Positions 1,553-63,425 of a stretch of 64,000 nt of DNA are shown here, piece after piece. Every line of letters starts with the position of its first letter. Within the stretch, counting starts at the first letter, position 1. The translations under genes and the position numbers were made by a program. This stretch comes from Eledone cirrhosa. Its lineage: Eukaryota. The notes beneath the pieces were generated by a model. It saw only the letters and a program-made list of their open reading frames with translations, did not search any database and was not told the origin of the DNA. The stretch is taken from NCBI GenBank assembly GCA_964016885.1, contig OZ024743.1, positions 274,226,001-274,290,000 of the forward strand, written 5' to 3'.

Positions 1553-1589
1553 TTTTACCGGTTGCGCATTTCTAAATGCTTTTCAAAAA
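1553..1589 (-). ncRNA. Hammerhead-like motif (U3-A8 core, GCAA in place of GAAA) in the PLE 5' leader
   Basis: Minus strand reads TTT-TTGAAAA-GCATTT ag AAATGC-GCAA-CCGG-TA-AAA: stem II, palindromic stem III ACCGGT, GUA triplet. Stem I is only 3 bp. Confidence 0.45.
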
Positions 1590-1681
1590 TAATTTTGAGA
1601 TAGAGTGTCCGTGCTGTTTGCTCTGATCTGATTAGTTTTGGGAATTCTACCTGTTTTTATGTTAAAAAAATGGCTCCAGCG

Positions 1682-2040
1682 TTATTTATATATATATATA
1701 TATATATATACATACATATATATATATATATATGTATGTATATATATATATATATATATATATATATATGTATGTATATAAATATATATATATATGTATG
1801 TATGTATATATATATATATATATATATATATATATATATATATATATATATATATATGTATATAAATATATATATATATATGTATGTATATAAATATATA
1901 TATATATATGTATGTATATAAATATATATATATAAATGTATGTATATAAATATATATATATATATATATATATATACATATATATATATATATATATGTA
2001 TGTATATAAATATATATATATATATTTATATATATATAAG
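1682..2040. repeat. (TA)n / (TATG)n compound microsatellite
   Basis: Direct inspection. Confidence 0.98.
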
Positions 2041-2700
2041 TATGTACACATACATACATATATGTATACAGACGTACAGTAGTATGTATATATATATACA
2101 TACACGCACACATATATATATGTACGTATGGATTCACCGAACATTTATTATAATGCTCAGTGTGTTTGTAAACAAACACCCCGTATTAAGCCGCAGTGTC
2201 CAGCAACCACCGTTGCTCGTTTGTTCAACACTGACAAGGGAACGCTGTACTAGTTTCAAGCTTATTAGCTATCGTCAGCAACGTATACCTTCCTGCCAGA
2301 ATGTTGAACGTATATACTTACCTCATGCATATTAACGGCTGAGTAGCCCAATTTGCATATCGAGTGGGTTAATCGGCCGGGTGCACCGAAAACGATAAAC
2401 GGAAAAAATGAAACGAAATTTCATTTCCCACTCTTAGTACGGCTGTTACTTAAATATAACTATGTACACGTACATACATATATGTATACAGACGTACAGT
2501 AGTATGTATATATATATACATACACGCACACATATATATATGTACGTATGGATTCACCTAACATTTATTATAATGCTCGGTGTGTTTGTAAACAAACATC
2601 CCGTATTAAGCCATAGTGTCGAGCAACCATCGTTGCTCGTTTGTTCAACACTGACAAAGGAACGCTGTACTAGTTTAAAGTTTATTAGCTATCGTTGCTG
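2041..2700 (-). mobile_element. Family A HHR-bearing repeat, about 1.6 head-to-tail units, 420-nt period (retrozyme or PLE pseudo-LTR-like)
   Basis: 2041 tatgtacacatacatacatatatgtatacagacgtacag recurs at 2461. Homologous to 15355-15772, 48657-49897 and 62808-63425. Confidence 0.85.
2243..2283 (-). ncRNA. Minimal type I hammerhead ribozyme (family A)
   Basis: Minus strand: CGTTG-CTGACGA-tAGCT aata AGCTt-GAAA-CTAG-TA-CAGCG. Canonical core, palindromic stem III ACTAGT, GUA cleavage triplet. Confidence 0.85.
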
Positions 2701-2759
2701 ATCTCCCTATTTATTAACTATTATATATATATATTTTTTTTATATTTTTGTTTATTTAC

Positions 2760-3270
2760 TTCCATCAAGATTTTAACTAGCAGGGCGTTTCTGGCAGGGC
2801 GACTAGCAGTAAACTATAACCGTGTCATATTACAACCTGGATGGGGGTGATTGTTTCGTTGGGGTGTGAGGGGACCTGCCTAGGCAAGTTTCGTAGAGTT
2901 TTGAGGTAGTAGATGGTCAGCTTCCTTCGGTCTTGCGTCTGCGCAAACCAGTGGGGGTGAATTGGGACTCACAAAGGAACAGGTGAAAGATTCAAGAACA
3001 CCCGCATTTTCCGTTCCCTTGTCGATTCAATTTGGATTGCCTCGGTAACATAACCTTATTATGTAAGAAGCTGTCTGATGATGTCACAGCACTTTGTACA
3101 CCGAACCGTGTCGCCACTGTCGTCATTGAAATATGTATCACAGCATTATCATTAAAGGACTTTAACATCTGAAACTACTTTACATTTTCCTATTCTAAAT
3201 ATACTCCGTCACTCCTGTGTGGAAAATTTACGTTGAGTGCTTGATTTGAATTGCATCAATATTTACCTTA
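2760..3270 (+). mobile_element. Probable PLE pseudo-LTR fragment carrying an HHR
   Basis: GC-richer island ending in (TA)n at about 3273, containing the HHR at 3070-3144. Confidence 0.5.
3070..3144 (+). ncRNA. Type I hammerhead ribozyme with long stem/loop II
   Basis: GCTGT-CTGATGA-tgtcacag...ctgtcgtcatt-GAAA-TATGTA-TC-ACAGC. Stem I GCTGT/ACAGC, near-palindromic stem III, AUC triplet. Confidence 0.7.
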
Positions 3271-61635: not shown

Positions 61636-61800
61636 TATATATCACAGAAAAAAGAGAGTCAGTGTTGCGATGAATGGAGTAAATTCCATTCGTCGCAACA
61701 CTGACTCTCTTTTTTCTGTGATATCATACTCTGCTCTATGAGGGCATCGAGTGCTCAAACGGCCTACTGCAAACGGACGCTTTAGGCATCCAACACCAAT
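61636..61800. mobile_element. Family E end fragment with an 85-bp hairpin
   Basis: atatcacagaaaaaagagagtcagtgttgcga...tcgcaacactgactctcttttttctgtgatat, followed by the reverse complement of 3333-3415. Confidence 0.75.
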
Positions 61801-62204
61801 TATATATATATATAGCTATATATATATATATATATATATATATATATATATATATATATATATATATAGCTATATGTATATATATATAGCTATATATATA
61901 TATATATATATATATATATATATATATATATATATATATAAAGAGAGAGAGAGAGAGAGAGGGGGGGAGATAACTGAACATATATATTTATATATATATA
62001 TATATATATATATATATATGTAGAAATAAACACAGTAAATTCTGTCTCTAAAATTACGGGGTAGAAATACCACATTTGTGTTATATATTTAACCTGAAAC
62101 ATACGTAAGATATAAAATGTTTATATACAGACCGTATCAATAACTATTTCATCTCTCGGACAGATTAGAGATTTGAAAATTGTGTTTGTAACAGATAATC
62201 CGTC

Positions 62205-62795
62205 AATATACTGTGTGCTTAATCAAAAGCATTTCGAAGACCTTACGCTATTGTTTTAGAGTAGTGACAGTCTCACTTACTTTAATTTTCAAGAAACAGG
62301 GGAGATAAAGCTGACAGAGCTCTGTTTCGCACTTGTTGGTGCTTATCAAAGCTAACTACTCCACCTGTTTGCTGAAAATCATGAATGTTTGATTCTTATA
62401 GAATTCTACTAATAATCAGAGCACCAATTCTTATAGAATTCTAGTAATAATCAGAGCACCAATTCTAATTTTCAATTTCTGCTTGACCGGCAAACGTTCT
62501 GTATAATCAGTTCCTGATTATTACTAGAATTCAATAAGAATCAAACGTTCATGATTTTCAGCAAACAGCTGGAGTAGTTAGCTTTGATAAGCACCAACAA
62601 GTGCAAAACAGAGCTCTGTCAGCTTTATCTCCCCTGTTTGCTGAAAATTAAAGTAAGTGAGACTGTCACCACTCTAAAAGAATAGTGTAACGTCTTCGAA
62701 ATGCTTTTGATTAAGCATACAGTGTATTGCAAAATACACTATATATACATTCATATATATATCGCTATTTCAGAGGACCAATTCTAATTTTCAAT
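62205..62795. mobile_element. Family F foldback; 319-nt terminally redundant unit
   Basis: Arms about 62205-62419 and about 62515-62728 are inverted. cagag(c/g)accaattctaattttcaa occurs at 62452 and 62771. Confidence 0.88.
62309..62353 (-). ncRNA. Type I hammerhead ribozyme, U3-A8 core variant (family F)
   Basis: AGCT-TTGATAA-GCAC caacaa GTGC-GAAA-CAGAGCTCTG-TC-AGCT, with a 12-nt palindromic stem III. The inverted copy at 62580-62624 has GAAA changed to AAAA. Confidence 0.8.
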
Positions 62796-62807
62796 ATATA
62801 TATATAT

Positions 62808-63425
62808 GAGCAACGATGGTTACTAGACACTGTACGGCTTAATTCGGGATGTTTGTTTACAAACACACCGAGCATTATAATAAATGTTCGCTGAATCGAT
62901 ATGTACATGTATATATGTGTGCATGTATGTATATATTATATATACATACTACTGTACGTCTGTATACATATATGTATGTACGTATACATACTTATATTTA
63001 AGTAACAGCCGTACTAAGAGTGAGAAAGGAAATTTCGTTTCATTTTTTCCGTTTATCGTTTTCGATACCCCGGCCGATTAACTCACTCGATATGCAAATT
63101 GGGCTGCTCAGCCGTTAATATGCATAAGGAAAGTACATACTTTCAGACGTTCAATCATCTGACAGGAAGGTATACGTTGCTGACGATAGCTAATAAGCCT
63201 GAAATTAGTACAGCGTTCCTTTGTCAGTGTTGAACAAACGAGCAACGATGGTTGCTAGACACTGTACGGTTTAATTCGGGTTGTTTGTTTACAAACACAC
63301 CGAGCATTATATTAAATGTTCGGTAAATCCATACGTACATGTATATATGTGTGCATGTATGTATATATATATATACATACTACTGTACGTCTGTATACAT
63401 ATATGTATGTACGTATACATACTTA
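62808..63425 (+). mobile_element. Family A repeat, about 1.4 units, 432-nt period
   Basis: gagcaacgatggtt.ctagacactgtacgg at 62808 and 63240. Reverse complement of 2041-2460. Confidence 0.88.
63175..63215 (+). ncRNA. Minimal type I hammerhead ribozyme (family A, slightly decayed)
   Basis: CGTTG-CTGACGA-tagct aata agcct-GAAA-TTAG-TA-CAGCG. Confidence 0.75.

Follow-up and report, generated by a model that had tools for sequence, protein, structure and literature searches.

Hammerhead ribozyme folds at the ends of Penelope-like elements and in non-coding tandem units of the Eledone cirrhosa genome

Hammerhead ribozymes (HHRs) occur in the pseudo-long terminal repeats (pLTRs) of Penelope-like elements (PLEs), with many families per genome, mostly as truncated single copies and as close pairs on opposite strands (PMC4209133). 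Retrozymes with circular RNAs are known in coral, mussel and axolotl (PMC7229834), and an origin of retrozymes from PLEs has been argued (bioRxiv 10.64898/2026.07.22.740005). Here and below, cited works are quoted as far as their available text goes. We analysed a stretch of 64 kb from the cephalopod Eledone cirrhosa (assembly GCA_964016885.1, 3.0 Gb; contig OZ024743.1, positions 274,226,001 to 274,290,000), called hereafter the window, which has about 33% GC and (TA)n tracts throughout. It contains numerous HHR folds, very likely of two kinds: ends of coding PLEs (families D, H, I, K and J2, the last at 1553), and tandem units (families A/A', B and F) which PLEs would have copied into TA repeats. 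This HHR population is an exceptionally dense instance of two known kinds, the system itself being published (PMC4209133, PMC7229834).

Folds were detected with a strict descriptor (type I HHR with CUGANGA and GAAA) and with a relaxed one that allowed one core deviation and an imperfect stem II. The strict descriptor found six type I folds in the window, or eight if other N3-N8 pairs were permitted, as compared to a mean of 0–0.06 and a maximum of about one in dinucleotide shuffles (100 per block size). The relaxed descriptor found 12, versus a mean of 0.15 and a maximum of one in 40 shuffles. An initial annotation of the window had listed 17 HHR sites in about ten families, proposed a dense and diverse population, and named shuffled sequence and core conservation as checks. 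All 17 sites proved to be type I HHR folds or damaged copies of HHR families, real folds lie far above the dinucleotide-shuffled frequency, the figure of about ten families stands, and the proposed density and diversity are supported.

Twelve of the 17 sites pass (2243, 3070, 15548, 17683, 25841, 27702, 29320, 29700, 40861, 49052, 49629 and 62309). The other five fail as single copies. Three belong to families that are intact elsewhere: 63175 is a family A copy with altered stems II and III, 26340 a family J copy with a broken stem II, and 62580 a family F copy with G12A. At 19757 (family I), stem I has only 2 bp and stem III is non-palindromic, family-wide, and at 1553 (J2), a U3-A8 fold, A13C is present in matched copies. 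D, 3070, 40861 and J/1553 had first been read as non-hammerheads, which other copies of these families overturned. Among the Rfam matches listed (150 of 432) there was one hammerhead, HH9 at 29303-29375 on the minus strand (E 2e-4), under the gathering score. The Rfam output was dominated by microsatellite matches to miRNA models, and repeats of the window were mapped by masked self-BLAST.

Inspection of the cores revealed CUGANGA...GAAA...UH around three stems, with an open stem I, in A, A', B, C (3070) and K, and the same with U3-A8 in F, J and H (40861). An unaltered core with a stable stem I was not found in D, J2, G and I, which are HHR-derived folds of uncertain activity; self-cutting of the HHR folds is predicted throughout. 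The initial annotation had described most folds as minimal with a palindromic stem III. Part of the families fit this description: a palindromic stem III is seen in A, B, K, F, J and 1553, whereas that of 3070 is self-complementary with G-U and those of D, 40861 and I are not palindromes. A, B and F, however, have an extended, covarying helix I. Two cores had to be corrected, that of D, which is U4A (CAGAAGA, sense strand as at 27706+), and that of J, 1553, F and 40861, which is U3-A8. A degenerate family G (four window copies) and more damaged J, D and A copies had been overlooked. The features of the window are the following.

53..1420, minus: 5' part of the J2 PLE open reading frame (ORF; 455 amino acids), continuing in another frame off the left edge into locus L113
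1552..1590, minus: J2 HHR-like fold of the 5' pLTR, with U3-A8, A13C and palindromic ACCGGT
2031..2698, minus: family A retrozyme, partial tandem, with 3' end at +217 into (TA)n; intact A HHR 2242-2284 (predicted cleavage after 2248) and damaged partial HHR 2668-2698, both minus
2990..3272, plus: family C (3070), HHR 3070-3144 with a long imperfect stem II; fixed 3' end into (TA)n
3726..3755, minus: degenerate J HHR, absent from the initial list
14587..14930, both strands: family G inverted pair, degenerate HHR 14698-14777 (minus) with core CCGUCGA; older relatives are CUGAG-type
15336..15778, minus: family A copy, HHR 15547-15589 with C3U
16099..16502, minus: GIY-YIG relic, inverted 5' arm of K, with a CxCX5C linker (Hydra-type); Pfam E 0.0045, below cut-off
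16771..17870, plus: K 3' untranslated region (UTR) and pLTR, HHR 17683-17748; ends in (TA)n
19151..19391, plus: family G copy with degenerate HHR 19189-19268, then a 5'-truncated D end (19325-19391)
19599..19975, both strands: family I inverted insertion, a PLE pLTR (as in L029), weak HHR 19760-19797 (plus) with a 2-bp stem I
25816..26195, minus: 5'-truncated PLE end of family D, U4A HHR 25840-25890; 3' end at +29 into (TA)n
26282..26376, both strands: family J inverted pair, both HHRs damaged (U3-A8 family)
27358..27775, plus: 5'-truncated PLE end of family D, U4A HHR 27702-27750
29096..30035, both strands: family B inverted pair with unequal 3' ends, canonical HHRs 29320-29362 (minus) and 29700-29742 (plus)
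29438..29457, minus: U6-promoter-like box, 101 nt upstream of the B core, 19.7 bits
36036..36572, plus: old PLE reverse transcriptase (RT) relic, no HHR assigned
40768..42701, minus: 5'-truncated H PLE, with endonuclease end 42701-42081, a UTR of about 1.1 kb and U3-A8 HHR 40862-40951
47510..47673, minus: older family G copy
48656..49930, minus: family A' tandem, HHRs 49051-49093 and 49628-49670; U6-promoter-like box 49157-49176
62260..62790, both strands: family F inverted pair, HHR 62309-62353 (minus) intact with U3-A8, HHR 62580-62624 (plus) with G12A
62808..63427, plus: family A partial tandem, HHR 63174-63216 with damaged stems II and III

Abundance in the genome was estimated from eighty evenly spaced 10-kb blocks on 12 large contigs (800 kb), a regular sample rather than a random draw from all 1,796 contigs. 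It held 49 strict folds, 61 with N3-N8 pairs (43 of these 61 with a strictly palindromic stem III) and 86 relaxed ones, as compared to 0–2 per 800 kb in shuffles. Bootstrapped from this 800-kb sample, the genome would hold 1.8x10^5 (1.2–2.5) strict and 3.2x10^5 (2.4–4.2) relaxed HHR folds. Counts of exact patterns over the genome were 24,602 for A, 13,468 for D, 28,595 for J/J2/F and 4,081 for B, each reversed-pattern control giving 0; summed, they set a floor of 70,746 HHR copies. The 94 pooled matches formed 30 clusters, 16 of which had at least two members, and a few singletons are probably due to chance. Families absent from the window were also seen (L032:3172/3430, L073:9699, L038:1999, L040:6125, L080:1530, L072:606), some of which have a long stem II or III and might work as monomers. 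When genome blocks were resampled, the probability of at least 12 folds per 64 kb was 0.11, and the window is therefore ordinary for its own genome.

Of 81 HHRs, 90% had a (TA)n tract in the 300 nt that follow them, versus 24% of random positions, in agreement with the (TA)n association initially claimed. Different HHR families were nested in one another's terminal (TA)n tracts (L107, L110, L102, L103), which explains the local HHR clusters. In three of four contig sets (two organism labels), family A covered most of its stretch, the fourth set giving one contig; such coverage bears on neither expression nor RNA ends.

The initial annotation had ascribed the folds to non-coding retroelements mobilised by PLE proteins with RT and GIY-YIG domains. 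The term non-coding is right for A/A', B and F only, since D, H, I, K and 1553 are the pLTR termini of protein-coding PLEs. The link to PLE proteins is supported by family-specific ORFs at a constant distance upstream of the D, H and I HHRs and by an RT plus GIY-YIG frame in J2. The full-length J2 PLE is a 4.8-kb copy whose frame opens at window position 1420, changes frame at the window edge and continues in L113, where Pfam recognised RVT_1 (E 3.7e-7) and GIY-YIG (E 1.7e-6); its two HHRs are 4,779 bp apart. In L101, a D HHR is followed by a 645-amino-acid frame and by a second D HHR 3.26 kb further. This frame has the motifs RWR, DKT and CxCX5C and aligns with other PLE frames, and Pfam gave it no score. 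For K, H, D and I, RT/GIY-YIG assignment was made by motifs together with blastp/tblastn, Pfam scoring only K (E 0.0045, below cut-off). Over the 26 window frames, Pfam returned only one weak GIY-YIG match and one unrelated weak match, and left the 455-amino-acid frame without family.

Direct terminal repeats bearing an HHR flank the ORF for D in L101, I in L029 and J2 in the window plus L113; for H and K, the copies encountered were 3' ends and inverted pairs only. A cognate ORF was located 1,130–1,141 nt upstream of several D HHRs, and 316–357 nt upstream in six of 15 I HHRs. For H (40861), the HHR lies about 1.1 kb behind the endonuclease end (42701-42081), and the K HHR is tied via an inverted arm to the GIY-YIG relic 16502-16099. 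PLE-like coding DNA made up 4.1% of the genome sample. Most copies of coding PLEs are short 5'-truncated 3' ends, so that in these elements HHRs accumulate as dead remnants. Truncation or inversion at the 5' side, a one-sided tail and a (TA)n target are clearest in D, and J2 and I are consistent with them. Measured from the cleavage site, D copies end at +28/29 in 22 of 31 cases and at +111–114 in six, mostly abutting TA repeats, and several D inverted pairs carry one of each 3' end. Judged by motifs set against PMC8557442, from which the clade names are taken, D, H and K have Hydra-clade motifs, and I and J2 a CX2-5CxxC linker. Families C, J and G have fixed 3' ends and inversions, with no cognate RT-endonuclease ORF within the flanks examined; for C (3070), 25 loci with 1.5-kb flanks contained no coding partner.

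K, C, G and D have in common a short motif, GTTGAG(T/C)(G/A)CT, downstream of the HHR (window 17800-17815; 3' regions of families C and G; 5' UTR in L101), possibly a PLE promoter or RT-binding signal that they share. Separately, a fold-back inverted insertion is present at 30450-31166 and 46710-47381, in two copies 83% alike between (TA)n tracts; it has PLE-like geometry and no HHR by our descriptors.

Families A/A', B and F are non-coding tandem units, and show every testable feature of the non-LTR retrozymes described in the available text of PMC7229834. The head-to-tail units, each with an HHR, measure 420–426 bp in A, 456–502 bp in A', about 466–469 bp in B and 319–328 bp in F (for instance a 328-bp non-coding tandem unit in L165). 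The longest array comprises 31 B units and is capped by an inverted copy. GC content is 32–37% in A, B and F units, and arrays contain no ORF. Predicted circular folds gave z values of −6.9 (A), −10.5 (B) and −7.1 (F), with 60 shuffles each. Within the sampled loci, proximity to any PLE ORF was noted for seven of 130 A copies, none of five B copies and three of 41 F copies, at varying distances and with varying PLE families, and no coding partner of F was found in 25 loci with 1.5-kb flanks.

When 16 A/A'/B copies were aligned, the core proved nearly invariant, and ten of 20 pairs changed on both sides. Stems were paired in 97% of cells, versus 31–41% in slid controls, and pair 35-71 showed four pair types. 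The retrozyme HHRs also have a bulged extended helix I and an AAUA/AACA loop 2, which may form the loop 1-loop 2 tertiary contact of canonical HHRs. In L108 (G000:C1:49582001-49591000) and L111, two types of unit (420/422 bp) succeed each other in ABAB order along the A arrays, neighbours differing at 10–16 sites and next-nearest units at 0–5. Copying of a dimeric circle would give such alternation, and later unequal exchange would explain it too. A single A heterodimer as the genome-wide mobile unit was considered and rejected, L108 and L111 alternating different pairs.

The marks of PLE insertion were read on family A itself: a (TA)n target, an inverted 5' arm and two fixed 3' ends. Among 40 terminal A copies, 21 end at +214–217 and 15 at +268–273, and eight of ten divergent A pairs carry one of each; the B pair of the window also has unequal 3' ends. 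An inverted arm and a one-sided tail have been described for PLEs (PMC8557442). Insertions end well downstream of the cleavage site, so the template was not a linear HHR-cut monomer, and we infer a circle or an uncut multimer primed internally. One A insertion (L010:1085-1350) is connected at its 5' end, via short microhomology, with the final codons of a GIY-YIG frame of Neptune-like type; this junction is probably an insertion, and possibly a template switch.

Upstream regions of three distinct U6 genes and one U6atac gene of this genome share a box at −76 to −78, with a TATA at −30. A matrix was built from those four regions alone and ranked over 1.6 million positions: the top 14 sites were all in A/B units. 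At 12 bits or more, 15 of 33 sites were followed by an A/B HHR, and one more was cut by the locus end. The U2 promoters of the genome do not share the A/B box, and at the spacing of the U6 genes no TATA is present in B. With this matrix, F, D, K, C, H, I and J2 scored at most 7.4 bits. From these sequence matches, a working U6-type promoter in A/B units is possible, though we lean slightly against it. No retrozyme with a U6-type promoter appeared among the literature matches listed. In a U6 tandem cluster on C19 (L127, L130), some copies have the box replaced by the short interspersed repeat that also occurs in the window (listed below), with only the TATA left.

The mechanism that we propose would begin with read-through of an array, for A/B probably from the U6-type box just upstream of the HHR of the next unit. 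Neighbouring HHRs would cleave, acting as dimers if stem III is no more than a palindrome, and RNA of unit length would then close into a circle. The GIY-YIG endonuclease of a PLE would nick (TA)n, and its RT would prime at an AT-rich spot inside the unit, at +217 or +273 from the A cleavage site rather than at the cleavage site. Copying round the circle would produce partial tandems, or else arrays reaching 31 units, and a second priming event the inverted arm with its unequal tail.

Several points weigh against this scheme. Our searches turned up no PLE with sequence in common with A, B or F, which leaves junction geometry as the sole basis for deducing a PLE partner. Cleavage and RNA steps rely on predicted folds; only one of nine predicted Xenopus retrozyme dimers cleaved (bioRxiv 10.64898/2026.07.22.740005), and PLE HHRs cleave poorly in vitro (PMC4209133). 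The one-of-each rule fails in two of the ten divergent A pairs, two of the eight conforming pairs look duplicated from one another, and A loci had been picked by similarity or for having arrays. The covariation in A/A'/B is mostly a single A-versus-B split (three B rows) and therefore counts as few events, and further pair types did not beat shuffles (173/500). In L108, six units are perfect alternating copies and three have extra changes, and unequal exchange also grows arrays. As to the promoter, the box-to-TATA spacing is 42 nt in A versus 46–48 nt in U6/U6atac genes, T4–T6 runs inside units would stop RNA polymerase III (Pol III), and F has no U6-like box.

Core deviations bear on the role of cleavage. 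U4A was found in 50 of 53 D cores and A13C in J2, G combines U4C and A6U, and stem I of family I has 2 bp; D and J2 are abundant families of near-identical copies. J, J2 and F retain U3-A8 with a compensated stem II. The deviant cores suggest weaker selection for cleavage in coding PLEs than in retrozymes, and the success of the U4A and A13C families fits such relaxed selection. U3-A8 has already been published in PLE HHRs (PMC4209133), and U3-A8 and U10.1-U11.1 variants were reported active (PMC3088659); the term U4A is absent from the available text of the latter. Abundant PLE families with U4A or A13C cores were not found in our literature searches; the supplements of PMC4209133 or PMC7229834 could list these variants or cephalopod HHRs.

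These deviant cores also favour a reading that we consider improbable for the families taken together, namely that HHRs are mostly non-catalytic passengers, spread being driven by RT and endonuclease alone. Young, abundant families do carry core changes (U4A in D, A13C in J2, U4C/A6U in G, a stem I of 2 bp in I), Naiad PLEs do well in the absence of canonical HHRs according to the available literature, and inserted copies end downstream of the cleavage site. However, the core of A, A' and B is invariant while the stems covary, and the U3-A8 of J, J2 and F is kept together with a compensated stem II, in a variant class reported active. As regards coding PLEs, passenger HHRs are compatible with the two-kinds reading. 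Still less probable is that all families are pLTR remnants of coding PLEs, the parents of A, B and F being unsampled and the arrays having grown locally as satellites. In its favour, D, H, I, K and J2 do consist of such remnants, an A copy (L010) directly adjoins the end of a GIY-YIG frame, and the bioRxiv study derives retrozymes from pLTRs and invokes local amplification. Yet in all 25 mapped loci what lies upstream of the A HHR is a previous unit, an inversion or a truncation, no consistent ORF was found near 130 A, 5 B and 41 F copies, and the arrays are dispersed and capped by PLE-type ends.

That A, B and F are short interspersed element (SINE)-like and moved by long interspersed elements (LINEs; RTE, CR1 and L1/Tx1 types are abundant here) rather than by PLEs is very improbable. 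LINE RT frames are common in the sampled DNA, and PMC7229834 leaves LINEs open as partners, but A, B and F carry neither a poly(A) tail nor a simple-repeat tail proper to them, and the resident PLEs are matched in the two fixed internal 3' ends, the inverted arms and the (TA)n targets. That the folds arose by chance in AT-rich sequence of low complexity, which only the AT-richness of the window would favour, is already refuted by the 61–86 folds observed as compared to 0–2 in shuffles of the 800-kb sample, by pattern controls of 0 and by covarying stems.

Beyond the two-kinds reading, a bolder one may be put forward, which we regard as possible but less likely than not: that this is the densest HHR population yet described, that A/B units each capture a U6-type promoter, that PLE RT rolls monomeric or heterodimeric circles into (TA)n arrays, and that PLEs tolerate near-dead cores. 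If so, a captured promoter in each unit would overcome the difficulty that a promoter is not itself part of the transcript, since read-through, cleavage and circularisation would carry it along. Cleavage would then matter more to the parasite than to the host element, and abundant circular RNAs of 420–470 nt would be expected in tissues. The hypothesis that PLEs mobilise retrozymes has so far been based on their co-occurrence and on homology to pLTRs. Here a PLE junction signature on tens of thousands of young copies, beside intact-looking PLE ORFs, makes the partnership testable in one genome. Canonical, covarying cores in non-coding units and deviant cores in successful coding families also offer a natural contrast on the role of HHRs in PLEs. 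Worth pursuing are the PLE junctions read directly on retrozymes, the box resembling that of U6 genes, and the core variants.

Other repeats were noted in the window. Near-identical inverted repeat pairs, 1.2–2.3 kb apart and with no HHR detected, lie at 53926-54297/56503-56884 and 33487-33630/34863-35006. A frequent family of short interspersed repeats without HHR, which we take to be SINE-like by its appearance, occurs at 11074-11217, 18146-18328, 23035-23220, 25612-25774, 38713-38813, 57889-58121 and 63917-64000. A GC-rich 169-bp tandem repeat (2.6 copies, 51766-52217) is unrelated to the HHR families.

A search of the literature gave no description of cephalopod hammerheads or retrozymes by title or abstract, subscription papers and supplements being largely outside its coverage. 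Items not found there were the cephalopod host, such a density, the U6-like box at A/B hammerheads and abundant U4A/A13C PLE families. For Octopus vulgaris, 31 recently active Penelope-like families have been reported (PMC13282606), and the words ribozyme and hammerhead are absent from the available text of that repeat annotation; a sizeable repeat class, and possibly abundant circular RNAs, would thus go unlabelled.

Compared to the HHRs of endonuclease-containing (EN+) PLEs (PMC4209133; Hydra and Neptune/Nematis clades, PMC8557442), the coding families are alike in a terminal-repeat HHR in elements with RT and C-terminal GIY-YIG, in mostly truncated copies, opposite-strand pairs, U3-A8 and a small palindromic helix III, and in an extra nucleotide 5' of stem II, (TA)n targets and a one-sided tail. 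The tails are about 41–85 nt here versus 30–40 nt, and U4A (13,468 exact copies) and A13C cores are fixed in young families, which was not found in the available text of the two articles. Newt satellite 2 and Schistosoma SM-alpha resemble the A/B units as HHR tandem or SINE-like repeats with their own promoter beside the ribozyme, of snRNA type (Pol II) in the newt and Pol III in the schistosome (as cited in PMC2220036). The putative A/B box differs in matching the U6/U6atac (TATA-containing), not the U2, promoters of its genome.

With metazoan non-LTR retrozymes (PMC7229834; bioRxiv 10.64898/2026.07.22.740005), the units share low GC, a non-coding tandem organisation of a few hundred bp, a type I HHR in each, predicted highly paired circles and coexistence with PLEs. 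Family A further shares with axolotl HHR_Amex2 a U-U mismatch at the base of helix II. Hosts described there are coral, mussel and axolotl, and 31 vertebrates, three insects and one anthozoan. The estimated density of all HHRs is 61–107 per Mb here versus about 4.5 per Mb in axolotl (126,247 in 28.2 Gb), or about 14–24 times as high, with descriptors that differ between the two. In contrast to these systems, PLE-type tails and inversions can be read here directly on retrozyme copies, a U6-like box lies upstream in A/B, and F has a U3-A8 core.

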